Source: an uncultured bacterium
GTDB taxonomy: Bacteria > Margulisbacteria > WOR-1 > CAVSGV01
Length of the DNA: 64,000 nucleotides
Reading direction: 5' to 3'
NCBI GenBank assembly: GCA_963768305.1
Contig: CAVYHE010000008.1
Coordinates: forward strand, 194,001-258,000
Positions 15,718 through 63,034 of the stretch are shown in pieces (within the stretch, counting starts at the first letter, position 1; the number at the start of each line of letters is the position of its first letter). Position numbers and translations under genes: made by a program. Under the pieces are notes generated by a model. It saw nothing but the letters and a program-made list of their open reading frames with translations. It made no database searches and was not told where the DNA came from.

Positions 15718-16911
15718 TTGAAAATGCAAAATGCAACCCTTGTAAAGCAAAATATTAAGGATTATTCTGCGCCAGAATATTTATTTGATGATTTAATTGA
15801 TTTTGAACAACCATTTTTCAATGACCAAATTATTACTTATATCGGAAATAAAAGAGCTTTGTTACAATTTATTAATGAAGGCATTGTCACTGTAAAGAAT
15901 CGTTTATCAAAAAAATCGTTGATTATTTTTGATGGTTTCTCAGGGAGTGGGGTAGTCTCTAGACTGTTGAAGTATCACGCAAAAGAACTCCACGTAAACG
16001 ACTTAGAAGATTATTGCGAGATCCTAAATAAATGCTATTTAAGCAATAAATCAGAAGTCGATTTTGATTTCATTAAGTCCAATATTGATTGGCTTAATAA
16101 GAACAAACTAATCTCACACAAAAAAGCCCCTTGTTTTATCCAGTCAAATTATGCGCCGGCAAATGATAATAACATCAAAAAAGGTGAGAGGGTTTTTTAC
16201 ACAAATAGAAATGCAAAAATAATCGACAATCTAAAATATTTGATCAATAAACATATTGATAGACAGAAAAGACATTTTTTCCTCGCCCCATTAATAGTAA
16301 AAGCATCAATAAACACCAATACTTCTGGGGTTTTTAAGGGGTTTCATAAGAAAGATGGCATAGGATGGTTTGGTGGGCGAGGCGAAAATGCTTTAACAAG
16401 AATAAAAAGAGAAATACATTTAGATGTGCCCGTTTTTTCGGAAAAAGAATGCAAAGTAATTATCACAAAAGAAGACGTTAATAAACTTGTTAAGTCCAAT
16501 AAAATACCAAAAGAATATGACCTGGCATATTTTGATCCCCCTTACAATCAACACCCTTATGGCTCCAACTATTTTATGCTTAATATTATTGCCAATGAAA
16601 AAAAAGCGATTGAAATACAGGATGGGGTTAGCGGTATAGCAAAAGACTGGAATAGATCTGCCTACAATAAGAAGCAGCAAGCCGAAGTTGCATTTGAAGA
16701 ATTAATTCAGAATACCAGGGCAAAATATATTTTAATATCATATAACAATGAAGGAATAATCGACCAATGCAAATTAAAAATGATTTTAGAGAAATATGGG
16801 AAGGTTGATGTTATTGAAAAGGAATATAATACATATAGAGGCTCGAGAAATCTAAATAATAGAAATATTAAAGTTAGGGAGATGTTGTGGATTTTGGAGA
16901 AAAATAAATAA
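15718..16911 (+). CDS. N6-adenine DNA methyltransferase, Dam/D12 class
   Basis: N-terminal YIGNKRALL motif, motif I FDGFSGSG and motif IV DPPYN, in alpha-class order. The gene is very AT-rich compared with its flanks. Confidence 0.8.
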   Translation: MKMQNATLVKQNIKDYSAPEYLFDDLIDFEQPFFNDQIITYIGNKRALLQFINEGIVTVKNRLSKKSLIIFDGFSGSGVVSRLLKYHAKELHVNDLEDYCEILNKCYLSNKSEVDFDFIKSNIDWLNKNKLISHKKAPCFIQSNYAPANDNNIKKGERVFYTNRNAKIIDNLKYLINKHIDRQKRHFFLAPLIVKASINTNTSGVFKGFHKKDGIGWFGGRGENALTRIKREIHLDVPVFSEKECKVIITKEDVNKLVKSNKIPKEYDLAYFDPPYNQHPYGSNYFMLNIIANEKKAIEIQDGVSGIAKDWNRSAYNKKQQAEVAFEELIQNTRAKYILISYNNEGIIDQCKLKMILEKYGKVDVIEKEYNTYRGSRNLNNRNIKVREMLWILEKNK

Positions 16912-16921
16912 AGGATGGATT

Positions 16922-17629
16922 ATGTCACATAAAAACCAATTAAGAAAACAAAGAGCTGGAACCATTATTAATGTTACCTCAAAGAAACAAGAAAGCGATA
17001 TTATTAAAGCACTTAGAGTTGTTGAGGATAAAATCAAAAAAGAGTTTCCGAAAATACAATTAGACTTTAAGAAGAATTGGTTATTAGATGAAATCATTAA
17101 AAGGCTTCATATCTTTTTTCCTGAAATTGAATTTCATTGTTATTCAAATAAAAGCAACATGAGGCCTGATGGTGGCATATTGTTTATAAAGAAAAGTGCG
17201 GATGGGGAACTCTTCCCAATTTTAATAACGGAGGCAAAAAATCAAGGGACAAATGACATTAGAAAGGCTGAGGGGAAAAGTAAGCAAGCTCTTGGAAATG
17301 CTATAGAAAGACTTGGAAAAAATGTTATTGGATTTAGAACCGCACTTTTAAATGAATCGATTTTTCCGTTTATTTGTTTTGGCTATGGATGTGATTTCTC
17401 AGAAAATGAAACAATTGTAGACAGAGTTGGGACAATCGCAATGTTTGGCAAACTGAACAAAACATACCTTCACAATGAAGGGGAAAACAGGTTTAATCGT
17501 GGGAGTTTTTATTTTCGAGAAAAGAGATGGTCGCCTGAAGAAATGTCAAAATTAATGTATGAAATAGCAAAAGGCAGTATCTATTATTATTTTTCTAAGT
17601 ATGGCCAAAAATCTTTCGAGAAGCTTTAA
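16922..17629 (+). CDS. EcoRI-family type II restriction endonuclease
   Basis: The segment RPDGGILFIKKSADGELFPILITEAKNQG...ALGNAIER...ESIFPF aligns closely with the EcoRI catalytic core (PD...EAK, GNAIERS). Immediately downstream of the methyltransferase. Confidence 0.8.
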   Translation: MSHKNQLRKQRAGTIINVTSKKQESDIIKALRVVEDKIKKEFPKIQLDFKKNWLLDEIIKRLHIFFPEIEFHCYSNKSNMRPDGGILFIKKSADGELFPILITEAKNQGTNDIRKAEGKSKQALGNAIERLGKNVIGFRTALLNESIFPFICFGYGCDFSENETIVDRVGTIAMFGKLNKTYLHNEGENRFNRGSFYFREKRWSPEEMSKLMYEIAKGSIYYYFSKYGQKSFEKL

Positions 17630-20247: not shown

Positions 20248-22954
20248 ATGGCAAAGGCAAGAAAAGGCTCAGGCTCATCAAAGGGAGGAAAAAAATACGT
20301 TTATTACTTCGGCGACGGAAAGGCCGAAGGCAACGGGCAGATGAAGGACCTTCTAGGGGGGAAAGGCGCGGGTCTCGCCGAAATGACGAACACCGGCGTG
20401 CCGGTGCCGTCTGGTTTCACCATCACGACAGAGGTCTGCAACATATTCTATAAGGTGGGGAGCAAGGTCCCTGCGGAAGTCACAAAACAGCAGGCAAAAT
20501 ACGTCGAGACCCTTGAGGGTTCCATGGGGGCCAAGCTCGGCGACCTGCGAAATCCCCTTCTGGTTTCGGTAAGATCGGGTTCGAAATTCTCAATGCCGGG
20601 CATGATGGACACCATCCTTAACCTTGGACTTAATGACGAGACTGTCCACGGCCTGATAACGAAAACAAAGAACGAAAGGTTCGCTTATGATTGCTACAGG
20701 CGCTTCATCCAGATGTTCGGCAATGTCGTCCTGGAGATGGAAAAGAACGAATTCGAGCACATATTGCAGGGCAAAAAGGAAGAGCTCGGCGTGATACTTG
20801 ACACGGACCTCAAGGCGGATGACCTGAAGGACCTGATATTAAGATACAAAAAGACCGTGAAAGAATCGACTGGAAGCGATTTTCCCCAAGACGCAAGAGT
20901 GCAGCTTGATATGGCGCGCGACGCCGTCTTCAAGTCTTGGATGAACCCCAGGGCAATCACTTACCGGAAGCTGAATGATATTCCGAACAACCTCGGCACC
21001 GCCGTCAACGTCCAGGCCATGGTCTTCGGGAACATGGGCGATGATTCGGCCACCGGCGTGGGATTTACAAGGAACCCCGCGACCGGGGAGAATAAATTCT
21101 ACGGCGAATACCTTACGAACGCCCAGGGCGAGGACGTGGTCGCCGGCATAAGAACGCCTCAGCCGATAACAAAGCTTGAAAAGGAGATGCCGTCGGTTTA
21201 CAAACAGCTTAGGGCGATAACCTCAAAGCTTGAAAAACACTACCGCGATATACAGGATTTCGAATTCACCATACAGAAAGGCAAGTTATACATGCTGCAG
21301 ACCAGGACCGGCAAGAGGACCGCTCCGGCGGCCGTAAGGATAGCCGTTGAGATGGTGGATGAAGGCCTTATAACAAAAGAGGAAGCGATACTCAGGATAG
21401 ATCCGGCGAGCCTCGATCAGCTTCTCCATCCGGTCATCGATCCTAAAGCCAAGGTGAAGGTTATAGCAAAAGGCCTTCCCGCTTCGCCGGGAGCCGCCAC
21501 CGGGATTGTGGTGTTCACCGCCGATGAAGCCGTGAAAAGAGCAGCGGAAAAGACGATACTTGTCCGCAATGAGACCTCTCCCGATGATATCCACGGCATG
21601 GACGCTGCGCAGGGGATCCTGACCGCAAGGGGCGGCATGACATCCCACGCCGCCGTGGTCGCGCGCGGAATGGGGAAATGCTGCGTTGCCGGCTGCGAGG
21701 AAATAAAAGTAGACGAAAAAGGAAAAAAGTTCAGCGTAAAAGATTGCGTTGTCAAAGAAGGCGACTGGATCACGCTTAACGGGACCACGGGCGAGGTCAT
21801 ACTTGGCCGCGTTCCTACGATCGAGCCTTCCCTGTCAGGAGAATTCGGCGAAGCTGATGAAGTGGGCTGATTCATTCAGGAAAATAGGCGTCCGCGCGAA
21901 CGCGGATATCCCTCATGACGCGCATGTAGCGAGAGGTTTCGGGGCGGAGGGAATAGGACTTTGCCGCACGGAACACATGTTCTTCGCCGAAGACAGACTG
22001 CCTCACATGCAGGCAATGATCATGGCAAAGACCGAGCCGGACAGGCGAAAAGCGCTTGCAAAACTTTTGCCGATGCAGCGAAGCGACTTCATGGGCCTGT
22101 TCAAGGAAATGAAGGGATATCCCGTCACGATAAGGCTGCTCGATCCGCCTCTACATGAATTCCTGCCAAAGAGGGAGGATTTGATGGTGGAGATCGCTGT
22201 CCTTAAGGCGACCGGGGGCGACAAAGAAAAGATAGCCCAAAAAGAAAAAATACTGGAAAGAGTGGAAGATCTGCATGAACTGAATCCCATGCTTGGGCAT
22301 CGCGGCTGCCGCCTTGGCATCGCTTATCCGGAAATAACCGAGATGCAGGCTCAGGCCATCATAGAAGCCGCATGCGAGCTTAAAAAAGAAGGGATGAAGA
22401 TCATCCCCGAGATAATGATACCTCTCGTCGGGCACATTAACGAGCTGAAGAACCAGAAAACGATAATAAAGAAGATCGCGGAAGAAACGATAAAGAAATA
22501 CGGAAGCAAGGTGGAATATAAGATCGGCACAATGATAGAGCTTCCCAGGGCGGCTGTCACCGCCGATGAGATCGCCACGGAAGCGGAATTCTTCTCGTTC
22601 GGAACAAATGACCTAACGCAGACCACCTTCGGGTTCAGCAGGGATGATGTCGTCAAGTTCCTTAACAGCTATATTGACAAGGGCATACTGGAAAAAGACC
22701 CGTTCGCGACGCTCGACCAGGGCGGGGTGGGCAAACTTGTGAAGATGGGGGTCGCGGGAGGCAGGTCGGTTAACAAGCACTTGAAGATCGGTATCTGCGG
22801 AGAGCATGGCGGAGATCCGGCATCGGTGGAATTTTGCCACAGGACCGGTCTTAATTATGTAAGCTGCTCTCCATATCGAGTTCCGATCGCGCGCCTTGCG
22901 GCAGCGCACGCGGCAATAAAAGAAAAGTCAAAGGTCCATTATACGACAAAGTAG
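20248..22954 (+). CDS. ppdK: pyruvate, phosphate dikinase (frameshifted)
   Basis: PPDK N-terminal ATP-grasp region, phosphohistidine region ([15 protein letters not shown]) and C-terminal PEP/pyruvate domain. An extra G near 21848 (GAATTCGGCGAAG versus expected GAATTCGCGAAG giving [15 protein letters not shown]) splits the gene into 20248-21870 and 21749-22954. Confidence 0.9.
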
Positions 22955-25986: not shown

Positions 25987-26014
25987 TGAAATTTCGAGCG
26001 ATTTATCACGATAA
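25987..26014 (+). promoter_or_regulatory. SigD/FliA-type promoter (TGAAA-N17-CGATAAT) immediately upstream of rpoD
   Basis: GTGAAATTTCGAGCGATTTATCACGATAATA. Same motif and spacing as the nine other instances in this window. Confidence 0.5.
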
Positions 26015-26036: not shown

Positions 26037-27091
26037 ATGAAAGAAGGAACGAATTTAAAGACGTTGAAGAATGCCGGCGAGAAGAAGGGATATCTTACTC
26101 CGGAAGAGATAATGTCCATTTATCCGGAGCCGGAGAAGAACATTGCCGAGATAGAGGAGCTTCTGACGCACGGCATAGAAATATCCGAGAACAAAGATAA
26201 GAAGATAGCGCCTTCTCCGGAAGAAACGAATCTTGACGTCACCGAAACAGAAGTAAAGAGCGCCGGCATAGACGATACCGTCAGGATGTACCTGAGGGAG
26301 ATAGGGAAATACAAGCTTCTTTCCCCCACGGACGAGATAGACTGCGCAAGGAAAGTTCGCGCTGGAAGCCTGAAGGACAAGCACAGGCTTACGAATTCGA
26401 ACCTGAGGCTGGTCGTTTCAATCGCGAAAAAATATACGGGCCGCGGGATGCTTTTCCTTGACCTGATACAGGAAGGCAACCTGGGATTGATAAGGGCTGT
26501 GGAAAAATTCGACCACAGGAAAGGGTATAAATTCAGTACTTACGCCACGTGGTGGGTAAGACAAGCAATAACGCGTTCTATAGCCGACCAGGCGCGAACC
26601 ATCAGGATCCCCGTTCACATGGTGGAAACCATGAACCGCCTGAGGAAGGTTTCGCGAACGCTCCTGCAGCAGCTGGGAAGGCGTCCCACCGAGGAAGAAA
26701 TAGCGAAAAGGTCCAGGATGTCGGTGGACAAAGTACGGGAGATAATAAAGATCTCGCAGATACCGCTTTCGCTTGAAATGCCTGTCGGTGACGAGGATTC
26801 TTCGCGCCTTGGCGATTTTGTGAAAGACACCGCCGTTCAGGCGCCGGATGAAGTGGTCCTTCATGGGCTATTAAGGGAAGACCTTGAGGAAGTAATGTCA
26901 TCGCTTTCTGACAGGGAAAAGACCGTGCTTAAGCTAAGGTTTGGCCTTGATGACGGCCAGCCGAGGACCTTGAAGAAGTTGGAAAAGTTTTCAATGTCAC
27001 CCGCGAGAGGATACGTCAGATAGAAGCGAAAGCCTTGAGGAAATTAAGGCATCCTACCCGCAGCAAAAAACTTAAGGAATATCTTAGATAA
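26037..27091 (+). CDS. rpoD: RNA polymerase sigma-70 factor (primary sigma, frameshifted near C-terminus)
   Basis: Region 2 ([27 protein letters not shown]...[17 protein letters not shown]) and region 3 are present. Region 4.2 ([28 protein letters not shown]) lies in the -1 frame. One missing G near 26975 breaks the gene. The tracked ORF ends early at 27023. Confidence 0.9.
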
Positions 27092-28038: not shown

Positions 28039-28110
28039 GGCCCCATCGTCTAACGGTTAGGACATCAGCTTTTCAAGCTGACGATCGGGGTTCGATTCCC
28101 CGTGGGGCTA
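28039..28110 (+). tRNA. tRNA-Glu (anticodon TTC)
   Basis: Cloverleaf with anticodon loop TTTTCAA and T-loop TTCGATT. G1:U72 wobble at the acceptor end. Confidence 0.8.
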
Positions 28111-28209
28111 TTTAATTTAGGGGAGCTTCTTGGAATGAGGCTGAGAACTTCGATTTAATCGGAGGACCCGACAACTTGATCAGGATAATGCCTGCGAAAG
28201 GAGACAAAA

Positions 28210-29178
28210 GTGAAAAAAGAAAACCTGCCCGAACTTGGAAAGATACCTCCCGAATTTTTCGACCGCGTCATTTATCCACGGTTAGGCGCAAAAAATAAGA
28301 ACATCATGATCGGTCCGAGACATGGGGTCGATTACGGAGTATTAAAGGTCGGCTCAAAGTACATGGCGATGTCCACCGATCCATTCTTCATAGTCCCGCA
28401 ATTAGGCTTTATGAAAGCCGCGTGGTTCGCTTTTCATATTATATGCAGCGATGTCGCCGTATCGGGGCTGAAACCTGAATATCTGGCGATCGATCTTAAT
28501 CTGCCGCCCGAAATGACAGAAGCTCAGCTGGAAGAGATGTGGGAGACCGTGCACGAAGAATCAAAAAAGTACGACATTAGCATAATCACCGGTCATACCG
28601 CGCGATATACCGGATGTAATTATCCGATGGTCGGAGGAGCGACGGCGATAGCTATCGGCACAAAGAAAGAATTGCGCGGCCCTTTCAGGGTAAGGACCGG
28701 CGACCGGATAGTCATTACAAAAGGGCCGGCAATAGAAACGACCGGACTTTTAGCCGTCTTATTTCCCGACAGGTTCATCAGGGCAGGCGGAAAAGCTTTT
28801 CAGAAAGAAGCCGCTGGCGTTTTTGATCAGATGTCAGTGATGGATGATTGCGCGATAGCACGTGGATTGGAAGGGGTTCGAGTGATGCACGACGCGACCG
28901 AATGCGGCATATGGGGCGGGCTTTATGAAATGGCAAGAGCCGGAAATTACGGTCTGATGATAGAAGAAGAGCTGATCCCTATTCAGCCGGTGATCAAGAA
29001 AACAGCTGAACTGTTCGATTTTGACCCGTTCTGCGCAATAAGCGAGGGGACTTTACTGGCTATAGTTGATAAAAAAGAAACGGACAAGTTAATCTCAGCG
29101 TTCAGGAAAAATAGAATCTTAAGCGCGGTCGTCGGCGAAGTTGTCGAAAGTAAAAAAGGGATAAAGATCAAGAACTGA
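28210..29178 (+). CDS. AIR-synthase-related (PurM-like superfamily) protein of unknown role (HypE/ThiL-like)
   Basis: 322 aa with a PurM-like N-domain (GVDYGVLKVG...AMSTDPF) and C-domain. GTG start. Confidence 0.6.
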   Translation: MKKENLPELGKIPPEFFDRVIYPRLGAKNKNIMIGPRHGVDYGVLKVGSKYMAMSTDPFFIVPQLGFMKAAWFAFHIICSDVAVSGLKPEYLAIDLNLPPEMTEAQLEEMWETVHEESKKYDISIITGHTARYTGCNYPMVGGATAIAIGTKKELRGPFRVRTGDRIVITKGPAIETTGLLAVLFPDRFIRAGGKAFQKEAAGVFDQMSVMDDCAIARGLEGVRVMHDATECGIWGGLYEMARAGNYGLMIEEELIPIQPVIKKTAELFDFDPFCAISEGTLLAIVDKKETDKLISAFRKNRILSAVVGEVVESKKGIKIKN

Positions 29179-29254
29179 CAATGGAGAAAGAACGCTGGAA
29201 CATCCTAAAACGGACCCTTACTGGAAATTGGCGGCGGAATTCTCGAAGTAATAT

Positions 29255-32313: not shown

Positions 32314-33137
32314 TATAATCCCAACCTCCTTCTATGGAGCGCATTAACGAAGAACGGCAAGCTCAAGGCAACCATCATTATCCCCAGGGGGAACTCGGTC
32401 GTGAATATTATCCTTGAGAAAATATCCATCAGAATGACCAGCGATGCGGTGGCAAGCATTGAGACAGGTATCATGTATTTGTAATTGACGCCGGCGACAA
32501 GGCGGATGAAATACGGGAATATGAGCCCGGCCAGGCACATAAGCCCGCACGTGTAAGCTGCCGCCACCGAAATGAGGACTGTAATAATGAGGAGGAATGC
32601 GCGGACCTTACTTACTTCTATACCCAGCGTTCTTGCGGTGTAGACGCCGAAAGAAAGTGCGTTCATATCTTTGTAATAGAATACATATACTATAAGCCCC
32701 AGAATAGTGAAAATGGACGCGACCAAAACCTTATCCCACGTCGTTCCCGCAAGCGTTCCCAGGAACCAGGGATAGAACGAATGGACGTTCATCCCGATGA
32801 TTATCATAATCGTGAATATGACCGCGGCCACAAAATCGATCATGTAAAGGGTTTTAACGGTGAACCTGTCGATGACCCTGGTCCCGAAAATTCCCAACAA
32901 TATCGAACCTGCGAGCGCAAGCAATCCACCGGACAGGATCTCCAGTATCAAACGGGGCATCCTTTCCTGCCAGATGACGTTTGATATGTCAGGGTTTGCC
33001 GCCGGGGAGAACACGGATAAGAAGACTTTTGAAGCAGGTATCCTGGGAAGCCCCATTAAAAGGGAAAGAAAGCCAATCATCGCGATGACAATAAGAAGAA
33101 AAATAATGAACGGGACCCTGTGCTTAAGTCGGTTCAA
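32313..33137 (-). CDS. FecCD-family ABC transporter permease
   Basis: Polytopic membrane protein with FecCD-like conserved segments. At 274 aa it is somewhat short, and internal indels cannot be excluded. Confidence 0.75.
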   Translation of the reverse strand: MNRLKHRVPFIIFLLIVIAMIGFLSLLMGLPRIPASKVFLSVFSPAANPDISNVIWQERMPRLILEILSGGLLALAGSILLGIFGTRVIDRFTVKTLYMIDFVAAVIFTIMIIIGMNVHSFYPWFLGTLAGTTWDKVLVASIFTILGLIVYVFYYKDMNALSFGVYTARTLGIEVSKVRAFLLIITVLISVAAAYTCGLMCLAGLIFPYFIRLVAGVNYKYMIPVSMLATASLVILMDIFSRIIFTTEFPLGIMMVALSLPFFVNALHRRRLGL

Positions 33138-34063
33138 TTGCCCTCCTGTTTCACGCTCCCTGATTCGGGAGTCACCGGCCAGTCGTAAGCGTACGCGGCT
33201 ATTTGCTCCAGCGCGTCCACAACTCTCGGTCCGGGTCTTGAAAAAACTTCTTTATCCAGAGACATGCCCTTGGGAGTATTATATATGTCTTTGGCGCTGC
33301 CCGCAACATTTTTGCCTGTGATTATGATATCCGGTGAAAGCTTTTTCAATTCATCCTTTTTCATGGTCGGGAACATGCCTTTTCCCTTCGGGGAAATATC
33401 CGAAAAACCCGCGATCCTTAAAATATCATGTAAGTATGTCCCCTCTCCTGCCGCCGTGAGCGGTCTTTTTTTGACAACAGCGAGCGCTTTCAGTCTTCTT
33501 TCCTTTTGCCCTCGCGCTTCCACCCAATCCACGCGCCTTTTCATCCTTTGGAGCAGGCTGTATGCCGAATGCTCCTTGTTCGTCATGGTTCCGATGACCG
33601 ATATAGTATCGTATATATCTCGGAGGCTGTGAGGATCCACAGTGAACACATTGACCGGGGCAGGTCTTGCTTCATCAGTCGCTTCATTTGTCGCCGGAAT
33701 GACCATTATCTGCCGAAGTTTGGAAATATCATCCTTCTGCCCTTCCAGATTGGCAAGGATAAGGTCGGGCTTAAGCTCAATGACCTTTTTGATGTCCACC
33801 CTCTCGTCGCCGACGCTTTGGATATTTTTCGCATCAGCGGGATAGTCGCAATTCCTGGTAACGCCGACGATCTTATCTTTCAGGTTGAACGCAAAAAGGA
33901 TCTCGGTGATGGCGGGATCTATCGAGATTATTCTGGACGGTGCCTGTTCCTGTTTAATAAGGTCGCCGGACGCGTCCTTTATTTTAACGGGGTAGATTAT
34001 CCTGTTAAAGCTGATGCCGTAAGCGATCCCGGAAGTTATGGATATCGCCAACAGCAAGGTCAA
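33134..34063 (-). CDS. periplasmic substrate-binding protein, class 8 (iron-siderophore/B12-binding)
   Basis: N-terminal anchor followed by a PBP fold (RIISIDPAITEILFAFNLKDKIVGVT). Forms an operon with the permease and ATPase. Confidence 0.8.
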   Translation of the reverse strand: MTLLLAISITSGIAYGISFNRIIYPVKIKDASGDLIKQEQAPSRIISIDPAITEILFAFNLKDKIVGVTRNCDYPADAKNIQSVGDERVDIKKVIELKPDLILANLEGQKDDISKLRQIMVIPATNEATDEARPAPVNVFTVDPHSLRDIYDTISVIGTMTNKEHSAYSLLQRMKRRVDWVEARGQKERRLKALAVVKKRPLTAAGEGTYLHDILRIAGFSDISPKGKGMFPTMKKDELKKLSPDIIITGKNVAGSAKDIYNTPKGMSLDKEVFSRPGPRVVDALEQIAAYAYDWPVTPESGSVKQEGN

Positions 34064-34189: not shown

Positions 34190-34217
34190 TGAAATTTCCC
34201 GGCAAATGCGTCGATAA
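34190..34217 (+). promoter_or_regulatory. SigD/FliA-type promoter (TGAAA-N17-CGATAAT) of paralog-array copy 1
   Basis: ATGAAATTTCCCGGCAAATGCGTCGATAATAT. Confidence 0.55.
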
Positions 34218-34292
34218 TATGATTGAGGTGGCGCATGAGCGGTTCATCCCATATAGAATTATCCGGTATGACCGAAAGGAGAAGCTGATCCC

Positions 34293-35222
34293 ATGGAAGA
34301 TATAACGCCTGTAATTGGGGGAAAGGTGCCCAGGCGCTGGGCGCACGATCAGTTCCAAGAAAAAATAAGAGTGCGGCTGAGCGGTCCCCTGCATTCCGTC
34401 CTGTTACGCGGTATCCCTGTCATCATCTCATTCAGGGCGTACGCACAGGACGTTCCAAATGATATCCGCAATATCAATGAACTTTCAGAGGGCTGTACAG
34501 GAAACAGTGGCATAAGAACGAGGATATATTTCGGATCTTTGAAAAAGCGCTGACGCTGCTCTCCGCTGCAAAGATCGACCAGGAGCAACATTACAATTAT
34601 GAGTTGGACCTGGGAAAACTTGCGAACGCGTATCTTGCGGTGAATGCACTTTATAAAAAAGATGAGCCCGAGCTCCATAAAAAAGCCGTCGAATTCCTCA
34701 AGAAACCGATGAGGAGCGGGTCATTCCACTTGCTCAGGGAGACAGGCGCGGCAAGGAGGGTTTACGAATCGCCCGTTTTCATGCGTTTCAAGCGCCAATC
34801 CTGCACATTGTCCGAATTAAATGTAATGACCGGGGAATGGTTCGGGAAGCTGATCAGGGAGCTGCATGGTTCAGGCGTTCTGCTCAAGCCCGCGCTTAAA
34901 AAAGAGCTCATGGACCAGTTTACAAGCTATGAGCAGATCTTATATATGTTCTCGGAGCATCTTTTCTGCAATTACCTTGCGACTGACGGGCGATCGATGA
35001 GGCTCCTGAAAAGGTCAATGGAAGCCGCCGCCTCGGCGGCGCGGGACCCTTTGCCGAAAAAAAAGACATCATGCTGGACCTGTCCATTCTCATGCCGGAA
35101 AAATTGAAGAAGCTTAAGATAAATGAAACGAAGATCGAGGATATCATTGAATGCACGGATAACAGATCGGTGACGCAGTTCCTGGTCGAGGCCCGCGCGC
35201 TGGGAAATCGGACACTGCAATA
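34293..35222 (+). CDS. paralog-array copy 1, family Y protein of unknown function (two frame disruptions)
   Basis: Homologous over its full length to copy 4 (36851-37701). Carries the conserved NEDIFRIFEKA and GAARRVYESP motifs. There is a frame break near 34535 and another in an A8 run near 35065. The tracked ORFs 34293-34553 and 34604-35107 plus the tail to 35222 belong to one gene. Confidence 0.6.
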
Positions 35223-35245
35223 ATATAACTTTTTTCTGCTCTTGC

Positions 35246-35274
35246 TGAAATTTTCGCCCTATTTTAACGATAAT
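35246..35274 (+). promoter_or_regulatory. SigD/FliA-type promoter of paralog-array copy 2
   Basis: CTGAAATTTTCGCCCTATTTTAACGATAATATT followed by an AAGGGGG Shine-Dalgarno and the ATG at 35292. Confidence 0.55.
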
Positions 35275-35291
35275 ATTATAAAGGGGGAATT

Positions 35292-36232
35292 ATGAACAAA
35301 ATTGGGCATGCCTATTAAAGAGAAGTCTGGAAGGCTGCGTGAGAGACCAGAAGAATCCTGAGACTAATCAAAACATACATGGTCCGAAACCCATCGAGTG
35401 CTTCAAAGAGCTCATAGACCAATTTAACAATGTTAAGGCAAAATATCAATTCTGGTTGACATTTAATAAAGAGCAGGATCAGATGAAAATGGATTGGCCA
35501 AGATAATAATAAATCACCCTTACAAAAGAAGAAATTGCAGGAACTATTTAAAGGGCCATAAAGGTCAACAACCATATCGCGGTCAGAAAACTGGAGACTG
35601 TTAAATCCGCTTATTGCCTTAACCTTGAATATGACTACGAATTGGACCTCGAAAACACTCACAGAAAGATCATACCCTTATAATTCAAGAAAAAATGAGC
35701 TTGGATCAAACGCCGATAGTTTCCTGATGTCGTAAACACAGACGAAATAACAGGTATTTATGATGAGCCGCTGGGAACATTAAGGACAATGGGTGTCATG
35801 AAAAGAAAATATGATCCGCCGATATTTCCTTTCATCCCTAAATCTTGTTTCGTTGCGACCCTTACAGAAATTAAAAACATGTGCGGCGCGTGGTTTGGTT
35901 TCCATTTTGAGTTCGCCGAAAAATCAAATGTCCAATTGAATTTCCTCGGACAGGAAACATCCAACATTGAAGATCTTGCCATAAAAATTAAAAAGCATCA
36001 TCTTTCAGAGGACGGCAGGACGCTTCTGCTTTTTCAAAAAGCTGTTCGAGCGGCGATCTCGTATAACTCAGGAAGATTGACCAAGATAACCCTTGATCTT
36101 TGGCAGGTGACGCCGAAAAAGCTTGAGGAAAAAAACATCAGCGAAAAAGATGTTGAGGATTTGATTGACAATAAGGATAACGGCGCCATTATCAGATTTT
36201 TAAGGGAAAAGATCGGCGCGCTAATAATTTAA
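35292..36232 (+). pseudogene. paralog-array copy 2, family Y (N-terminal half disrupted by stops and frameshifts, C-terminal 147 aa intact)
   Basis: MNKIGHAY then a stop. Fragments RAIKVNNHIAV...EYDYELDLENTHRKII (35552-35691) and the 35789-36232 ORF align with copies 1 and 4. The antisense ORF 35315-35662 in the track is spurious. Confidence 0.55.
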
Positions 36233-36233
36233 C

Positions 36234-36767
36234 ATGCCTAAATACATGAATGTTAGAAGTGCACATGTCAAGTTGGTATACACCCGTCGACGCTATCAAA
36301 CTGTTGCGATGACCGGAATATTGCCCAAGTGCCCCGAAGATATGTCCCAAAAAATAAACCGCAAATTCGAACCGCATCTCTTTAACGCCCTGCAAAGCAA
36401 AACCTCGATATTTTTCGGGGAAACCTGCGTATCATCCTCCAGGGCCCTTGCAATGATCATACACGGATATGAAACAAGGTGCCCAAAAACCAGGATCGTT
36501 TTTTCAGATGACAAATTGAACATGCTGCTGAAAGCGATAAAGATCGCCGGCAAAGCCAACAGGAAAATTCTCGGTTCGCGCGATAAGGACTACTTATACC
36601 ACGTGCAGCTTGGAAAACTGCTTCCGACTCTGAACAAAATGGCGTCCTTTCAGCGAAAACTGAATGCTTTCAAGGGTCAGGAAAATGAAAAAGCCGCATT
36701 GACAATATTAGAGGAGATGGGCGCCATTGATTTGAAGTATTCGCCGCAAGCACCTGATTTCATATAA
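36234..36767 (+). CDS. paralog-array copy 3, family Y, C-terminally truncated variant
   Basis: 177 aa. A continuous reading frame across the region where copies 1 and 4 are broken (MIIHGYETRCPKTRIVFSDDKLNMLLKAIKIAG). Ends just after the Y-SP motif (AIDLKYSPQAP). Starts 1 nt after the copy 2 stop and has no promoter of its own. Confidence 0.55.
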   Translation: MPKYMNVRSAHVKLVYTRRRYQTVAMTGILPKCPEDMSQKINRKFEPHLFNALQSKTSIFFGETCVSSSRALAMIIHGYETRCPKTRIVFSDDKLNMLLKAIKIAGKANRKILGSRDKDYLYHVQLGKLLPTLNKMASFQRKLNAFKGQENEKAALTILEEMGAIDLKYSPQAPDFI

Positions 36768-36803
36768 TTCCCGCCTCCTCAACCCTTATTTTCCGCTTTC
36801 CAC

Positions 36804-36831
36804 TGAAATTCCCTCTTTATTTTGACGATAT
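36804..36831 (+). promoter_or_regulatory. SigD/FliA-type promoter of paralog-array copy 4
   Basis: CTGAAATTCCCTCTTTATTTTGACGATATATAT followed by a GAGGGA Shine-Dalgarno and the ATG at 36851. Confidence 0.55.
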
Positions 36832-36850
36832 ATATATAGAGGGAAAATAT

Positions 36851-37701
36851 ATGGTTATTGAACAAGCGGGCAGGGTTTTTGGCCTCGTGAGAATGAACTA
36901 CATGAGCGCCAGGATCAAAACCAGAATATCCGGAAGGTTCGAAGGTCTTCTGAAAGAAGCTTCAACCCTAAAAACGTCCGTTAGTTTTTACGGCATTATG
37001 ATACATAATGCCGGGGAATGTCCAGGGTAATCGCCGGCCGCAGATCGGACATCAATGAGGATACCCTGCATATTTTTGAGAAAGCCATTAAAACTAACAA
37101 CGCTTCATTCGCTGCGGATTATGTGTCTGAATTGGAGCTGGAAAACCTGCTTCCTCATCACCTTTCAACATATATACAGCAAAATAAATTAAATGACTTC
37201 CTGAAAAGCGAAGATCCGGCCTTATCGCTCGCCATTCTCAGAGAGTTCGGCGCGGCAAGAAGATTATATTATTCACCGATGAAATTATTCCGCGAGTCAG
37301 GATGGATCAATAATTCAAAAGATGTTTATGACCTTACGGAACACCATTTCGGCGGGCTCGTACAGAAAGCGATGGAATCGGGCATCGTAGTAAAGATCAA
37401 CTTTGGCACTGTCAAGGGAATCGAAGACCTGTCAAAGGCGATCTGGGTTAATCATCTTGCCGAGGACGGGCAAACTTTCCTAATGTTAAAAAAGGCGCTC
37501 GAAAACACTATTTCAGATGCGAAAAGGAATCAGCAAATGTTATATACTCTTGACCTTGGCTATTTGGTCCCAAGCCATGCTAAAGTAAATGGCGGCTTGA
37601 ATGACGCCATGATAGACAACATCATCGATGAAAAAGATCCCAGTATAGTGTATGGATTTCTTGTCCAATATCGGGTGCTCGATCTAAGATACCGCAGTTG
37701 A
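36851..37701 (+). CDS. paralog-array copy 4, family Y (one frame break near 37020)
   Basis: The 59-aa N-terminal ORF (MVIEQAGRVFGLVRMNYMSARIKTRISGRFEGLL...) and the 37018-37701 ORF (MSRVIAGRRSDINEDTLHIFEKAIK...GAARRLYYSP...) together align with copy 1 and copy 3. Confidence 0.6.
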
Positions 37702-37718
37702 ACGCGCCCGTCGGCGTC

Positions 37719-39860
37719 CTACTTTATCCCCAGCGATTTTAAAGTTTCAGCGGAAGCTATTATTTTTCGGGGTTTATTGTCATTCTCAAGCGCCGAGACC
37801 ACACCCGCGGCCTCCATCTCATCCATCAGCCGCGCGGCGCGGTTGTAGCCGATCCTCATCCTTCTCTGCAGGTGCGAAGTGGATGCCTGACCGCCCGTGA
37901 CTATTATCTTAACCGCTTCGGCGAACAGGTCGTCATGCCCGCCCTCAGTCGATACGCTCCCTGATTCCCCCGCTCCGTACTCGATGTCGATGATCTCCTG
38001 AGAATACTGCGGCTGGGCCTGTTTCTTTATAAAATTCGTTATTTTTTCCACTTCATTATCGGAAACGAACGCGCCTTGCAGCCTGAACGGCTTCATCGCG
38101 CCTACCGGATGATAAAGCATATCTCCCCGCCCCAAAAGCTTTTCGGCGCCCGACATATCTAGTATTACGCGGGAATCCACCTGAGTCGCCACAGCAAAAG
38201 ATATTCTTGACGGGATATTTGCCTTTATCAATCCCGTGATGACATCTACGGACGGCCTCTGCGTCGCAATGACAAGGTGAATGCCTGTCGCGCGCGCCAT
38301 TTGGGCAATGCGGCATATCGTCGTTTCAACTTCCGTGGCGGCCACCATCATCATGTCCGCGAGTTCATCCACGATTATGACGATATAAGGCAGTCTTTCC
38401 ATTTCCTTTGGCGACCTGTCGGCTTTCGCGTTAAAAGCTTCCAGGTTCCTGACTCCGGCCGAGTAAAATGATTTATAGCGACGGTCCATTTCGCGAAGGA
38501 CCCATTCCTTTAACGTCCTCGATGCTTTTTTCGGGTCGGTCACGACAGGGGCAAGAAGGTGCGGGATATCATTATAATGCGTGAATTCAACCATCTTGGG
38601 ATCTATCATCACGAATTTCACTTCATCGGGCCTCGCCCTTAAAAGGATGCTTGTGATCAGCGTGTTTATGCAAACGCTTTTCCCCGATCCGGTCGTTCCG
38701 GCGATCAGCAGGTGTGGCATTCTTGTCAGGTCGCCGTAGATAGGCGTCCCGGAAAGGTCTTTGCCGATGCCGATAAGGAGTTTTGAATGATGGTTCTGGA
38801 ATTCTTCGGTCTTCGCTATTTCTCTAAGTCTTACCGGAGTTATCGATGGATTAGGCACTTCTATGCCCACTGCCGCTTTTCCGGGAATGGGTGCTTCTAT
38901 CCTTACGCCCTGAGAGGCAAGGTTCAGCGATATGTCGTCGGCAAGGTTCGCGATCCTGCTTACCTTAACTCCCGGCTCAGGCTGGACCTCGTATCTTGTA
39001 ACAGCAGGCCCCTGATGAACAGCGATGACAGAAGCTTCTATCCCGAACGATCTCAAGGTTTCTTCAAGTGCTCTCTTGCGGATCTCAATTGTCTCCTTCA
39101 TCTTTTCTTCCCTCTGGCGGTCCCTGTCCGTGGGGCTGTCCAGAAGTTCCAAAGGAGGAAGCTCGTACCTGCCAAGTTTCTTCGGGGTGATGACGGACGG
39201 TCTTGACGCAGGTCTCTCGACCGGCTTTTTTTCTTCATGCGTCTCAAGCTCGAACGCCGCGTTGTTCAATTCTTTTATTACGGGGATCATCGATGGTATT
39301 GACCTTTTCTCCTCCGCCTCTTCCATCCTTTGCTTCGGCCTTTGCCTTCTTTTGAATATCATGTCCCACAGTCTTGAAATTGAGTGGGTCAGAGTGATGT
39401 TGAATATCAGTATCAGTGAAATGAGGAAGATCGATGACAGTACGACATACGCTCCTGTGGTCCCGAATATCCCATTCAGTCCGCCTTTGATAACGGCACC
39501 CAGGTACCCGCCATCGCCGTAGGAGATGAGCGTTGAAAAGAGAAGGATAATGCCCAGGAACTGGGCTGTAATGATTATGAACTGCTTCCTGAGCATGAGG
39601 AGCACGCCGAAAAGTCCCAGGAAATACGGCAGCATATAAACGCCTATGCCGATCAATGGCTTCAGGAATTTGCGGATGACGTAAAGCCCCATCAGTCCTG
39701 TGGATGATCCGGATCCGGAGCTGGTGGATATGAATATGAAAAGAGCCAGGGCGATAAGCAGTATCCCTATTATGTCCTGACTTAAGTGAGAGGGTTTTCT
39801 ATATTTCTCGAATTTCCGCTTTCTGGCCAATCCTTGTACCTCGCGGAAATTATAGCACAA
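37719..39860 (-). CDS. ftsK: DNA translocase FtsK/SpoIIIE
   Basis: N-terminal membrane domain and motor domain with Walker A GTTGSGKSV. The C-terminal gamma winged-helix is present (QASTSHLQRRMRIGYNRAARLMDEME). Confidence 0.9.
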   Translation of the reverse strand: MCYNFREVQGLARKRKFEKYRKPSHLSQDIIGILLIALALFIFISTSSGSGSSTGLMGLYVIRKFLKPLIGIGVYMLPYFLGLFGVLLMLRKQFIIITAQFLGIILLFSTLISYGDGGYLGAVIKGGLNGIFGTTGAYVVLSSIFLISLILIFNITLTHSISRLWDMIFKRRQRPKQRMEEAEEKRSIPSMIPVIKELNNAAFELETHEEKKPVERPASRPSVITPKKLGRYELPPLELLDSPTDRDRQREEKMKETIEIRKRALEETLRSFGIEASVIAVHQGPAVTRYEVQPEPGVKVSRIANLADDISLNLASQGVRIEAPIPGKAAVGIEVPNPSITPVRLREIAKTEEFQNHHSKLLIGIGKDLSGTPIYGDLTRMPHLLIAGTTGSGKSVCINTLITSILLRARPDEVKFVMIDPKMVEFTHYNDIPHLLAPVVTDPKKASRTLKEWVLREMDRRYKSFYSAGVRNLEAFNAKADRSPKEMERLPYIVIIVDELADMMMVAATEVETTICRIAQMARATGIHLVIATQRPSVDVITGLIKANIPSRISFAVATQVDSRVILDMSGAEKLLGRGDMLYHPVGAMKPFRLQGAFVSDNEVEKITNFIKKQAQPQYSQEIIDIEYGAGESGSVSTEGGHDDLFAEAVKIIVTGGQASTSHLQRRMRIGYNRAARLMDEMEAAGVVSALENDNKPRKIIASAETLKSLGIK

Positions 39861-40097
39861 AAGGAATTAGGGCTAAAGCATCCTCATTTCTGTCAATTCC
39901 TAGTTTTAAAATAATCCTGAAAAAGCGGGAGTTTGAAATAGATCAGGAATGATCAATCGATATAAGAATTCCAATAAGCTTGATTCCACTTGCCAAAAGC
40001 GATACATATATTTTTCAATGTTCGGGAAAGATCCGATATCGGAGAGCGGGCCCGGAGCAGATCCGGGTGTTCCTCTAAATATTGCGTTACATCACTT

Positions 40098-40598
40098 TCA
40101 TCTAACGAACTTCAACGGTTCAAGTCCGGGAGTGATCTTTATCCAGGAATCCTTATCCCGAGGACCTGTCAACATAGCCGTACTAAGCAAATGATTGTGG
40201 AAAAGAGAAAATGTTTTTATAAAATATTTATATGGATCTGGTTCGTGAATTGAGGTTGATTTTGCTTTTAAGTATTCGAGATCGGATATCCAGACAACTC
40301 TTTGAAGTTTATTGCAAATATCAAGAATTTTCGCGCTTCGATCTTCTACGGTAAATTTCTTTACCTTCCTGATATTATCAAAAGGGACCCCGGCAGATAT
40401 AAATGCTTTGCGCACGAGGCTTGCGCGCTCCAAGAACTCGATCGAATGCTTTCTGGGCAGAACTCCCAAAGCTTTTGCGGTTTTCCGATTTACCCTGATG
40501 AATTGACAACCGCTATCACCGCCACTTATGTGAACAAAGGGAATATCTCTGCGGCAGTTGATCCTAAGAAAATCTTCCGGCATATCTTTCCTCCTCAA
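40098..40598 (-). CDS. family A paralog 1, hypothetical protein with conserved C-terminal W-I-K-I-T-P-G-L-E-P-L motif
   Basis: 166 aa with a TTG start and AAGGTG Shine-Dalgarno. Shares RRDIPFVHISGGDSGCQFIRVNRKTAKALGVLPRKHSIEFLE and the C-terminal DSWIKITPGLEPLKFV with the 41389-41958 protein. Confidence 0.55.
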   Translation of the reverse strand: MRRKDMPEDFLRINCRRDIPFVHISGGDSGCQFIRVNRKTAKALGVLPRKHSIEFLERASLVRKAFISAGVPFDNIRKVKKFTVEDRSAKILDICNKLQRVVWISDLEYLKAKSTSIHEPDPYKYFIKTFSLFHNHLLSTAMLTGPRDKDSWIKITPGLEPLKFVR

Positions 40599-40622: not shown

Positions 40623-40649
40623 TTATCGACAAATCATGCCGAAAATTCA
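40623..40649 (-). promoter_or_regulatory. SigD/FliA-type promoter variant (TTGAAT-N16-CGATAAA) of family A paralog 1
   Basis: Reverse complement TTGAATTTTCGGCATGATTTGTCGATAAAT. Confidence 0.45.
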
Positions 40650-40840
40650 ATTTTTCTAATCTTTTTCCCCGTGTCTTTTCAAAACATCAAGAATATGAGC
40701 TGTAAAAGCCCTTTCGCTTTCCCTTTCTGCATTAAAAGTTGAGATCGCAAATGAATCTTCATCATAGGGAGAGCTTATAACACGGGAATCCCCTTTCGTT
40801 TCACTTGCAAAGGTCCTTTCCTCTAACCGCATTGCAGAGC

Positions 40841-41216: not shown

Positions 41217-41244
41217 ATATCGTTAGCATTCTTTAAAAATTTCA
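41217..41244 (-). promoter_or_regulatory. SigD/FliA-type promoter of family A paralog 3
   Basis: Reverse complement GTGAAATTTTTAAAGAATGCTAACGATATATAAGGAG. Confidence 0.5.
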
Positions 41245-41388: not shown

Positions 41389-41958
41389 TCAGAGTTCTTT
41401 CTGATGTTTTATTAAATAATCCTTTACGGCATTTTTGCCTACAAAACTTAATGGTTCAAGGCCGGGAGTGATCTGGATCCAACAATCCCTGTCAGATGGT
41501 ATCGTTAATGCGGATCTGTTGAGTAAACGCATTTCAAATATGGAAAATGCTTCCTTAAGATATTGATGAAGATCTATGCTGAGATTATTGTGAATATCAA
41601 TACGTAAAAAGGCGAAGTCCCGTTCATTAAAGATGTTCGTGAATTTATCGCACACTTTGAAGACTTGGTTGCCGAGAGCTATTGAGGCGCGTAATTGCTC
41701 CACCCCGTTCATTTTGGAAAGATCTAATTGTGCATCATTGATAAAAGGATTTGATCCCGAGGAAGATATGAATGTTTTGATCAGGAGGGACTGGATCTCC
41801 AAATGCGCGAGCGGATAACTGCGCGGGGCGAGCCCGAGAACTTTTGCAGCCCCAGCATCAATTCTTATTTCTTTCCTGCCGGATAGTCCCCTGCTTATGC
41901 GGCCAAAGGGAATATTTACGTTCAAACTAGCCGCCCTGAGAACTTTTGATATACTCAT
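41389..41958 (-). CDS. family A paralog 2, hypothetical protein with C-terminal W-I-Q-I-T-P-G-L-E-P-L motif
   Basis: 189 aa. NVNIPFGRISRGLSGRKEIRIDAGAAKVLGLAPRSYPLAHLE and the C-terminal DCWIQITPGLEPLSFV are shared with paralog 1. Confidence 0.55.
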   Translation of the reverse strand: MSISKVLRAASLNVNIPFGRISRGLSGRKEIRIDAGAAKVLGLAPRSYPLAHLEIQSLLIKTFISSSGSNPFINDAQLDLSKMNGVEQLRASIALGNQVFKVCDKFTNIFNERDFAFLRIDIHNNLSIDLHQYLKEAFSIFEMRLLNRSALTIPSDRDCWIQITPGLEPLSFVGKNAVKDYLIKHQKEL

Positions 41959-42011
41959 ATAACTGCCTTCTTCCTTGATAATTTGACCTGTTCACTCTCT
42001 AATACGTTATT

Positions 42012-42039
42012 TTATCGGCAATATTTGCGAAAAATTTCA
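42012..42039 (-). promoter_or_regulatory. SigD/FliA-type promoter of family A paralog 2 (perfect GCCGATAA -10)
   Basis: Reverse complement GTGAAATTTTTCGCAAATATTGCCGATAAAAT. Confidence 0.55.
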
Positions 42040-44405: not shown

Positions 44406-45272
44406 TCAAATGGTTCGCGGAGGCTTGTGGCGTAAGTCGATGATCATCGTATTATCGGGTTCGACAGGAATTATGTCATCCCCCTCTTCGTGAAGCACAT
44501 CATCTTTATGAAACACATGGTCATTATTGGTATCAGCGAATTTTACTGCCTTTTTTCTGCCTCCGTGAAAGCCTCGGTGAAGCTTGGTGATCTTTAGATG
44601 CGAGAGTTTCCCTGCGTAAGAGCTCATCATCCTTTCAACCTCCACTGAACCGGCGCACAAAAACCGTTGATTGGATAAAGCTCTGACAAAAACTTTTAAG
44701 ACCTTGTCCATTGTTTTTTGGGTAGCTTTTCCGCTGACCCGGACCACCAGAGTGAAATCCTTGAAGGGATCGATCCCCGGCACGGACCGCAAACCTTTAT
44801 TAAAATTCAAGTTGAAAAGGTTTGAGGGGTCTCCCTTGAACGGCTGCCATAATATCTTCACTTCAAATCCGTTAGGCACCGCATCCATGATCTCTCCAAT
44901 GTTAGTAAAAAAGTTGTGTTTGTTCAGGCTGCTTATCACTTTGCCGGGCAATTCAACCCGCTTTTCAATGCATTCTCTGAGAGGCCGTCTCGGCATTTGG
45001 AAACCTTTGCTTTGGAAACTGCCTGCGAGGCCGTTTTCCTCGATAACCTCAGCCAATCTGGGCAAAAGATCTTTCCTGACATGCTTCATGAAAGCTTCGG
45101 GATTTTGCTCGAGAGGGTTTTTTCCGCTTGGAACGATCTCATTGCTTACCGATCCCGAAGCTATGTACCCCTTTTTAGCGCTCTCAAGATGCTTCTGAAA
45201 GGGGCTGAACCTTACAGCTTCGGCATGAGACGCGTGTTTCCCGAAATTCCCGATTTTTCTTGTTGATATCAA
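44406..45272 (-). CDS. hypothetical protein (288 aa)
   Basis: TTG start with an AAGGTGG Shine-Dalgarno. No recognisable domain. Confidence 0.5.
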   Translation of the reverse strand: MISTRKIGNFGKHASHAEAVRFSPFQKHLESAKKGYIASGSVSNEIVPSGKNPLEQNPEAFMKHVRKDLLPRLAEVIEENGLAGSFQSKGFQMPRRPLRECIEKRVELPGKVISSLNKHNFFTNIGEIMDAVPNGFEVKILWQPFKGDPSNLFNLNFNKGLRSVPGIDPFKDFTLVVRVSGKATQKTMDKVLKVFVRALSNQRFLCAGSVEVERMMSSYAGKLSHLKITKLHRGFHGGRKKAVKFADTNNDHVFHKDDVLHEEGDDIIPVEPDNTMIIDLRHKPPRTI

Positions 45273-45290: not shown

Positions 45291-45318
45291 ATATCGGCTT
45301 TTTGGCGTGAAAATTTCA
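45291..45318 (-). promoter_or_regulatory. SigD/FliA-type promoter (perfect GCCGATAT -10)
   Basis: Reverse complement CTGAAATTTTCACGCCAAAAAGCCGATATAAT, located 19 nt upstream of the TTG start of the 288-aa hypothetical. Confidence 0.55.
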
Positions 45319-48341: not shown

Positions 48342-49159
48342 TTAGTCTTTGAGGGTTGCCCTGTAAAGCAGGTTTTTGGGGACTTTCAGCCGTTTCGCCA
48401 CTATTTTTACCGCGTTGCTCTTCGGAATGCCAGCTTCAATAAGATCGTCCACCAGCATCTCGGGGTCTATGCCTGCCTTCTCCGGCGCTTTCTCGCCTTC
48501 GATCACAAGAACAAATTCTCCTTTGGGTTTGACCTTTGAGAATTTATCGATCATCTGAGAAGCCGTGCCCCTCGCGATCTCCTCGAATTTTTTCGTCAAT
48601 TCCCTCGCAACACACATTTTCCTGTCCCTGAAACCGCTTTTAATATCTTCAAGGGTTTCCAGGAGGCGATGAGGTGCTTCATATAATATGATCGTCCTCT
48701 CTTCACGTGACAGCTTCTCGAAAATTCTTTTCTTGCGGAAGGCTTCACGGGAGGAAAACCCTCAAAAGCAAAGCTTTCGGTCTTAAGCCCTGAAACGGAA
48801 AGCGCGGCGATCAAAGCGGACGCACCAGGGATCACTTCGATCTTAATCCCTTCGCCTGCCGCTGCTTTAACCAGCTCCTGTCCGGGATCGGATATCCCTG
48901 GCATTCCCGCGTCAGAAACAAGAGCGACTTTTTTACCCTCTTTTAATTTATTGATGATGAAAGCCGTCTTTGTCTTCATGTTGAATTTATGGTATGAGGT
49001 CGTCGGCGTTTTTATATGATATTTATCAAGAAGTATTTTCGTATGGCGCGTGTCTTCGCAGGCGATAATATCCGCTGATCTGAGCGTTTCAACCGCACGG
49101 AAAGTGATGTCCTGAATATTGCCTATGGGGGTACCTACTATGTAGAGATATCCGGCCAT
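48342..49159 (-). CDS. rsmI: 16S rRNA (cytidine1402-2'-O)-methyltransferase RsmI (frameshifted)
   Basis: N-terminal tetrapyrrole-methylase fold (YIVGTPIGNIQDITFRAVETLRSADIIACEDTRHT). The conserved C-terminus (MCVARELTKKFEE...KGEFVLVIEG) is in another frame. The break is in an A-run near 48730 (ARKEFS versus expected RKKRIFEKLSREERTIILYEAPHRL). Confidence 0.8.
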
Positions 49160-56997: not shown

Positions 56998-57025
56998 TTA
57001 TCGTCATATTTCCACGAAAATTTCA
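56998..57025 (-). promoter_or_regulatory. SigD/FliA-type promoter of the 157-aa hypothetical
   Basis: Reverse complement ATGAAATTTTCGTGGAAATATGACGATAATAAT. Confidence 0.55.
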
Positions 57026-59446: not shown

Positions 59447-59541
59447 TGAATATTGGGGAGTAGACCCGAAGGGTCGTTGAGGGGCTTGCCCCTCAAGTAA
59501 CGAGAGTTAGAGCAAAGTAACAACAAAGGAGGAGTAATAAT

Positions 59542-60567: not shown

Positions 60568-60603
60568 CGGACACTGGCGCGTAATAGAAGGAGGATGAGT
60601 TAA

Positions 60604-63006: not shown

Positions 63007-63034
63007 TGAAATTCCCGCACAAAACTGCCGATAA
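63007..63034 (+). promoter_or_regulatory. SigD/FliA-type promoter (TGAAA-N17-GCCGATAA) of the LRR protein gene
   Basis: GTGAAATTCCCGCACAAAACTGCCGATAATGG followed by an AGGAGG Shine-Dalgarno and the ATG at 63053. Confidence 0.55.

Follow-up and report, generated by a model that had tools for sequence, protein, structure and literature searches.

A fixed, copy-variable gene cluster of an undescribed protein family behind predicted sigma-28-type promoters in an uncultured Margulisbacteria bacterium

The flagellar sigma factor has the promoter consensus TAAAGTTT-n11-GCCGATAA (PMC2859248). In Campylobacter jejuni, the Feds (flagellar coexpressed determinants), which are not flagellar structural genes, are reported to be part of the sigma-28 regulon (PMC6196472, citing Barrero-Tobon and Hendrixson 2012). 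Sigma factors of the WhiG clade also drive non-flagellar programmes, for example pilus or sporulation genes (PMC8325347). Furthermore, long-read metagenome contigs are known to carry frameshift errors (PMC6469205). We analysed a stretch of 64,000 nucleotides (nt), here called the window, from an uncultured bacterium of the Margulisbacteria (assembly GCA_963768305.1, contig CAVYHE010000008.1, positions 194,001 to 258,000 of the forward strand). At positions 34190-37701 it holds a tandem array of four related genes, which the original prediction had described as decaying. With modest confidence, we favour a vertically inherited, lineage-specific cluster of an undescribed protein family with sigma-28-type promoters, probably of four intact genes.

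All four genes lie on the plus strand. Copy 1 (type 1, two modules, about 310 amino acids (aa)) spans 34293-35222, as placed by frameshift-aware alignment to the intact orthologs L005_7451 and L014_8977. Copy 2 (type 2, two modules, about 310 aa) spans 35292-36232, from its hidden Markov model (HMM) match and alignment to three intact orthologs of 304-326 aa. Next, copy 3 (type 3, a single module, 177 aa) is intact at 36234-36767, as seen from its orthologs, the frameshift-aware alignment and the HMM. Finally, copy 4 (type 4, two modules) spans 36851-37701; it has 286 aa in relatives, where the orthologs P0002-P0004 are uninterrupted. Divergent from copy 1, at 33134-34063 on the minus strand, is the Peripla_BP_2 (periplasmic-binding-protein) gene of a FecCD/ABC operon, named from the Pfam annotation of syntenic loci; its protein is 80% identical to the L005 ortholog. 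On the other side, ftsK (37719-39860, minus strand, assigned by synteny) is convergent with copy 4, and a terminator-like hairpin, reported by a consensus scan only, lies between them at 37704-37717 on the plus strand.

The head-to-tail arrangement of four paralogs was confirmed at the positions first proposed. Three-frame translation of 34190-37720 gives four successive units, and the motif blocks quoted by the original prediction are real. Among intact orthologs, types 1, 2 and 4 are pairwise similar (blastp, E 1e-8 to 2e-18); type 3 is similar to type 4 in the N-terminal half of the latter (E 2e-8), so that the concern that pairwise similarity might not be significant does not apply. The family HMM finds matches at the four array places only, when run over the whole window. 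The duplicates are now about 25% identical. At the DNA level the copies are unrelated, with a best pairwise blastn match of 22 nt at 91%. Gene conversion from silent cassettes (of the vls or pilS type) was considered and rejected, as the copies have their own promoters and no DNA identity.

The same four-gene order was assembled independently from several samples with several assemblers. When 5.8 billion proteins were searched with copy 4 as the query, four full-length homologs of 286-308 aa were returned; their contigs share synteny and about 80% DNA identity with the window. In L004, L005 and L006 all four genes are intact (310, 310, 177 and 286 aa). Types 2, 3 and 4 are present in L001, L002 and L008, and types 1, 2 and 3 in L014. 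More distant genomes have either a single copy (L010/L011 and L017/L018) or an independent expansion to three copies (L019). At every locus, the family is flanked by a divergent Peripla_BP_2/FecCD/ABC operon (btuF-type) on one side and a convergent ftsK on the other. These flanks are kept down to 67% FtsK identity, a distance at which identity in the family protein has fallen to only about 25%. The comparisons indicate that the locus is vertically inherited and fixed, copy-variable and fast-evolving. The expectation of a duplication-prone locus thus held when copy number was compared across relatives, with 1 to 4 copies at the same chromosomal position.

The family is narrowly distributed: 1.84 billion representative proteins, searched exhaustively with a profile, yielded 37 representative clusters, almost all of 250-330 aa. 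Neither the four types nor the distant members scanned had a significant match in Pfam, NCBIfam, PADLOC or PHROG, and the array family has no significant match in PDB or to a curated family or solved fold. The family is built on a unit of about 125 aa, a module that occurs twice in copies 1, 2 and 4 and once in copy 3. Profile-profile comparison (hhalign) of the N-terminal with the C-terminal half gave a probability of 99.6% and an E of 1.6e-24, which proves an internal duplication. The AlphaFold2 model of P0002, an ortholog of copy 4, has a predicted local distance difference test score (pLDDT) of 80.7 and a predicted template modelling score (pTM) of 0.72; that of copy 3 from the window has a pLDDT of 85.4. 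In these models, which are confident, the module has an alpha/beta order of a long helix, a beta hairpin, two helices, a strand, two helices and a strand. This order is the same in each module, with two modules in the long proteins.

Copy 3 is a stable, conserved single-module paralog and had been taken for a truncated gene in error. Its HMM match is limited to profile positions 35-153, which is one family module, and its orthologs have 146-177 aa and occupy the same position in all relatives. It begins 1 nt after the stop of copy 2 and has no promoter motif of its own, as first noted, and the arrangement is conserved in relatives. The conserved 1-nt spacing and the lack of a motif indicate that copies 2 and 3 are bicistronic and co-transcribed.

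As for the possible role of these proteins, the invariant or near-invariant positions in an alignment of 27 diverse members are Leu and Pro only, and no signal peptide or membrane segment was found in the array family proteins. With no conserved polar residue as a possible catalytic site, binding partners would fit better than catalysis. From these features we infer that the array proteins are non-enzymatic, with a probably cytoplasmic binding or scaffold role. Some members carry additional terminal motifs. Approximately 11 of the 27 representatives have a C-terminal tail, which the clade of the window lacks; the distant members with a tail include P0013, P0014, P0018, P0019, P0021, P0028-P0030, P0036 and P0043 (alignment A4). 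This tail is composed of a basic linker, a Q[ML]xL[P/x][FLY] motif and a terminal [IV]PxDLLYP[EQK], and the former motif resembles sliding-clamp-binding peptides. An N-terminal 'h-x-S-G-R-P' motif is common to many family members. Judged by their sequence, the tail and the N-terminal motif may be docking peptides.

Three of the copies have a promoter motif in front, found by pattern search on the plus strand. For copy 1 it is GAAATTTCCCGGCAAATGCGTCGATAA at 34191-34217, 76 nt upstream of the ATG. For copy 2 it is GAAATTTTCGCCCTATTTTAACGATAA at 35247-35273, and for copy 4 GAAATTCCCTCTTTATTTTGACGATAT at 36805-36831, both 19 nt upstream of the ATG. The general form in the array is GAAATTT-N12-GNCGATAA; the sites read GAAATT(T/C)-N12-G(T/A)CGATA(A/T), with AACGATAA as the variant of copy 2, and the other sites of the window have the exact GCCGATAA/T. 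We compared these with sigma-28 promoters defined by a -35 TAAA(GTTT), a -10 GCCGATAA and 11 nt between the octamers, that is 15 nt from TAAA to GCCGATAA (PMC2859248, PMC8325347). Written as GAAATTTT-n11-GCCGATAA, the array motif matches the flagellar sigma consensus, with G and not T as the first -35 base. The pattern GAAA-N17-CGATA(A/T) occurs at 9 sites in the window versus 0.79 expected, and none of 100 shuffles reached 9.

The motif is kept before every family gene that heads a transcription unit, across 13 loci and including homologs that are about 25% identical. That of copy 1 is also found upstream of the orthologs in L004/L005 and L014, that of copy 2 is conserved in L001, L004/5, L006 and L008, and that of copy 4 in L001, L003 and L004-L008. 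At the level of the motif, the proposed SigD-type and mutually paralogous promoters of three copies are therefore supported. Housekeeping genes of the window have TTGACA-17-TATAAT promoters, often with an extended -10, so the sigma-28-type motif marks a separate promoter class. From these promoter sequences we infer that the array genes belong to the regulon of a flagellar-clade sigma (FliA/SigD/WhiG), which would be the acting factor. Since WhiG-clade sigmas control non-flagellar programmes, motility itself is not implied for the array.

Further sigma-28-type motifs were found by pattern at 25988-26014, 41217-41243, 42012-42038, 45291-45317, 56998-57024 and 63008-63034, and a weaker one, a GAATTTT variant, on the minus strand at 40624-40650. 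Outside the array, their targets are the rpoD-like gene, five basic ORFans without a family match and a small leucine-rich-repeat (LRR) protein. For a stretch of 64 kb the apparent density of this regulon is unusual: there are at least 10 sites, most of them in front of ORFans and one in front of the rpoD-like gene. A second lineage-specific paralog pair is found at 39956-40583 and 41392-41985 (minus strand), each gene behind a sigma-28-type motif. The two proteins have a common C-terminal block, '(S/C)WI(K/Q)ITPGLEPL(K/S)FV'.

In terms of evolutionary rates, the ratio of nonsynonymous to synonymous divergence (dN/dS) of the array family is 0.2-0.6, versus 0.05-0.12 in the flanks, which bears out a fast-evolving locus. 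Its dN is 3-6 times that of the flanks. Between the window and intact orthologs the ratio is 0.19-0.64; between intact copies it is mostly 0.24-0.46, with one pair at 0.86. Copy 1 and its L014 ortholog have 84% amino-acid identity and a dN/dS of 0.29, and a three-taxon estimate for the window branch of copy 1 gives about 0.36. At synonymous sites, the array genes have diverged 2-5 times less than the flanking genes (L001, L005, L007 and L014 among the loci compared); for copy 1 against L014, dS is 0.28, versus 1.5-2.0 in the flanks. The nearest relative differs by paralog, being L014 for copy 1 and, by eye, L007 for copy 3. The low dS and the paralog-dependent nearest relative hint at allele exchange between lineages at the array.

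To locate the lesions of the array, the copies were aligned with intact orthologs in a way that allows for frameshifts. In copy 1 a single nucleotide has been deleted at each of two points, about 34491 and about 35069, the latter missing from the original prediction. Copy 2 has 5-6 single-base frameshifts, at about 35316, 35477-86, 35521, 35553, 35651 and 35733, followed by an uninterrupted C-terminal module (35740-36232). No frameshift is present in copy 3. Copy 4 has one 1-nt deletion at about 37019 (GAA[C]TG to GAATG), which gives open reading frames (ORFs) of 59 and 227 aa. A search of GTDB species genomes and JGI metagenome contigs, with protein patterns and a DNA pattern over this break, returned no second assembly of the same population. 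The nine array lesions are all 1-nt indels, and approximately 900 corrected codons contain no nonsense codon or larger indel. What had been read as in-frame stops in copy 2 is read-through of its 5-6 frameshifts, with none left in the corrected frame. Stop-codon recoding in copy 2 was also rejected: the stops are mixed (TAA, TGA and TAG) and disappear after frame correction. The breaks of copies 1 and 4 do fall in homologous positions, about 9 nt apart in the alignment, as originally observed.

Single-base frameshifts are also found in other genes of the window. One lies at 26970, in region 4.2 of the rpoD-like sigma gene (26037-27088), and removes this region from a primary-type sigma. A primary sigma without its -35-binding helix is hard to accept as real. 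Others lie at 29176 in the AIRS-domain gene (28210-29248) and at 48724 in the TP_methylase gene (48345-49159). The pps-like gene is split at around 21750-21870 and the aspartokinase gene between AA_kinase and ACT at around 52004; both are probably further cases of the same kind. These split housekeeping genes point to a background of consensus indel errors of about 0.1-0.16 per kb. In L014 (14423-16651), secD and secF are in three short ORFs and Peripla_BP_2 is shortened, with intact array genes. This fragmentation indicates that frameshift-type breaks in these assemblies are not specific to the array.

Taken together, it is likely that most of the array lesions are an assembly artefact, given the pattern of 1-nt events, no nonsense codons and no relaxation. 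Consensus errors are expected to accumulate where co-assembled strains differ most, as they would at a hypervariable locus like this one. Several observations weigh against this account and the cluster model built on it. Frameshifts occur at about 2.6 per kb in the array versus about 0.1-0.16 elsewhere in the window (Poisson P about 1e-9), a density some 17-25 times higher. Homopolymer content was rejected as the cause of this excess, as its density is equal in the array and the rest, and several of the breaks are outside homopolymers. Other ORFans behind the same motif are also frameshifted, at 40103, a 1-nt insertion in gene 39956-40583 relative to orthologs 88% identical in protein, and probably at 44612, in the ORFan at 44406-45272. 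Real mutations in dispensable genes would give a similar pattern. As for function, the case for a binding role is one of absence (no catalytic motif, no signal peptide). Finally, no sigma-28 gene (fliA, sigD or whiG) or flagellar gene lies within the window, where an rpoD-like sigma gene is found, so that the motif is what assigns the array to the regulon. Genuine and very recent pseudogenisation, in a lineage that is shedding the family and perhaps with it a large part of its sigma-28 ORFan regulon, is a rival of some weight, though we hold it unlikely. Copy 3 would then be the one gene left, perhaps alongside the C-terminal module of copy 2 expressed from an internal ATG at 35789. The frameshift excess, the two further frameshifted ORFans behind the same promoter motif and the breaks outside homopolymers, beside substitutions, speak for it, as does the presence or absence of individual paralogs in relatives, which makes the genes dispensable. 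Neither of the signs looked for in a pseudogene array was seen, however: the disabling mutations are not of mixed types, with no nonsense mutation and no indel above 1 nt among 9-11 events and a copy 3 that is full length relative to its orthologs, and dN/dS does not move towards 1, as under relaxed selection, or above the intact baseline. Six events lie within 420 nt of copy 2 and none in its other 490 nt, and the assembly produces such lesions anyway, as in rpoD region 4.2 and other core genes. With intact relatives as well, the description of the array as decaying is not supported.

Other explanations give the breaks or the array itself a different meaning. Programmed ribosomal frameshifting or phase variation would make the breaks functional, and breaks of copies 1, 4 and 2 indeed lie no more than about 10 aligned codons apart, and an A8 tract precedes the second break of copy 1 by 5 nt. 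No ortholog is interrupted at these sites, the break points have no slippery heptamer or simple-sequence repeat, and the A8 tract is equally long in in-frame orthologs, all of which makes this reading very improbable. The break positions of copies 1 and 4 are conserved in no ortholog and so are not programmed; we attribute their near coincidence to chance, for which the estimated probability is only about 0.03-0.06. An immunity, anti-phage or other conflict-gene array, with turnover driven by an arms race, is improbable. Fast evolution, variable copy number, mosaic allele similarity between genomes and an array dS below that of the flanks, hinting at exchange between lineages, would fit. On the contrary, none of 13 loci has a toxin, nuclease or other partner gene next to the family, PADLOC gave no match except a spurious Cmr5 (E 0.031), the match to Imm6 is sub-threshold (E 0.086), the position is fixed and inherited down to 67% FtsK identity and not in a defence island, and the control is by an alternative sigma. 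The immunity, surface or phase-variable roles initially suggested thus found no evidence, with no toxin neighbour, signal peptide, break-site repeat or PADLOC or Imm match. A small chance goes to a structurally new, sigma-28-coexpressed class under conflict, for example proteins exported at a motile or late stage or stage-specific regulators that dock via conserved terminal peptides, in combination with a real, approximately 20-fold frameshift excess, in this and other ORFans behind the motif, that marks a whole alternative-sigma accessory regulon being discarded. Repeat-induced misassembly or a collapsed tandem repeat, also raised at the start, has a practically negligible probability: the copies have no DNA similarity, which excludes a repeat-driven error, and the four-gene order recurs in independent assemblies.

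Under the favoured model of an inherited cluster of probably intact genes, the alpha/beta module of about 125 aa would form a pseudo-dimer where it occurs as a tandem pair, in copies 1, 2 and 4. Copy 3, with one module, would be translated off the transcript of copy 2. Transcription from the three predicted FliA/SigD/WhiG-type promoters would place the genes in the regulon of that sigma, which in this organism appears rich in basic ORFans. The family would have stayed at one fixed locus and, in separate expansions in different lineages, gone from 1 to 3-4 copies. Its proteins may bind partners in a sigma-governed cell state, either motility or another late or differentiation programme. Consensus errors concentrated at a strain-variable locus would account for the nine frame breaks.

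If intact, the cluster defines an unannotated family with a duplicated module and no recognisable fold relative. It would also be a conserved target of a flagellar-clade sigma in an uncultured lineage and a useful handle on the role of that sigma, though it is only one of many ORFan families. Should the lesions be real, the locus would be a record of rapid, regulon-wide loss of sigma-28 accessory genes. The practical lesson is that pseudogene arrays in metagenome-assembled genomes (MAGs) should be checked by frameshift-aware alignment to orthologs before decay is called. A second check is to compare them with how often essential genes of that assembly are frameshifted.

Other features of the window were also observed. 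A low-GC island at 15718-17629 (GC content 0.31-0.35) encodes a D12-class N6-adenine methyltransferase and an EcoRI-like endonuclease, and is probably a horizontally acquired restriction-modification system. A thiamine pyrophosphate (TPP) riboswitch (Rfam RF00059, 55.2 bits) is located at 28109-28219, immediately ahead of the possibly thiL-like AIRS-domain gene. The gene order at 57092-62957 is miaB-like, pgsA, cinA, recA, rny and ymdB. Lastly, an LCP-family gene is present at 12594-13520, and the best RpoD profile is of the Firmicutes type; with the gene order, these are the hints of taxonomic affinity within the window.

When compared with known systems, the array resembles lineage-specific tandem paralog families in its head-to-tail duplicates of about 25% identity, its copy-number variation and its raised dN/dS. 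It is unlike them in that its position is fixed over deep divergence, each long copy keeps an alternative-sigma promoter, and one paralog is a stable, half-size, single-module derivative. With the immunity arrays of polymorphic toxins it has in common tandem divergent paralogs with strain-level gain and loss. Contrary to those, it has no toxin gene and no Imm match, and is composed of two-module proteins of 280-330 aa with their own sigma-28-type promoters. As in the frameshift artefacts of long-read assemblies (PMC6469205), isolated 1-nt indels split conserved genes, essential ones included; here, however, their density is non-uniform, about 17-25 times higher in the array, and only some events are in homopolymers.

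Finally, the array proteins differ from the Feds in being unrelated to any Fed, flagellar, pilus or sporulation protein. Like the Feds, these genes are not flagellar structural components and would ride on the regulon of this sigma. Together with the WhiG targets of non-flagellate Actinobacteria, the Feds are the sigma-28 regulon members with which the array shares a promoter architecture that matches the consensus.

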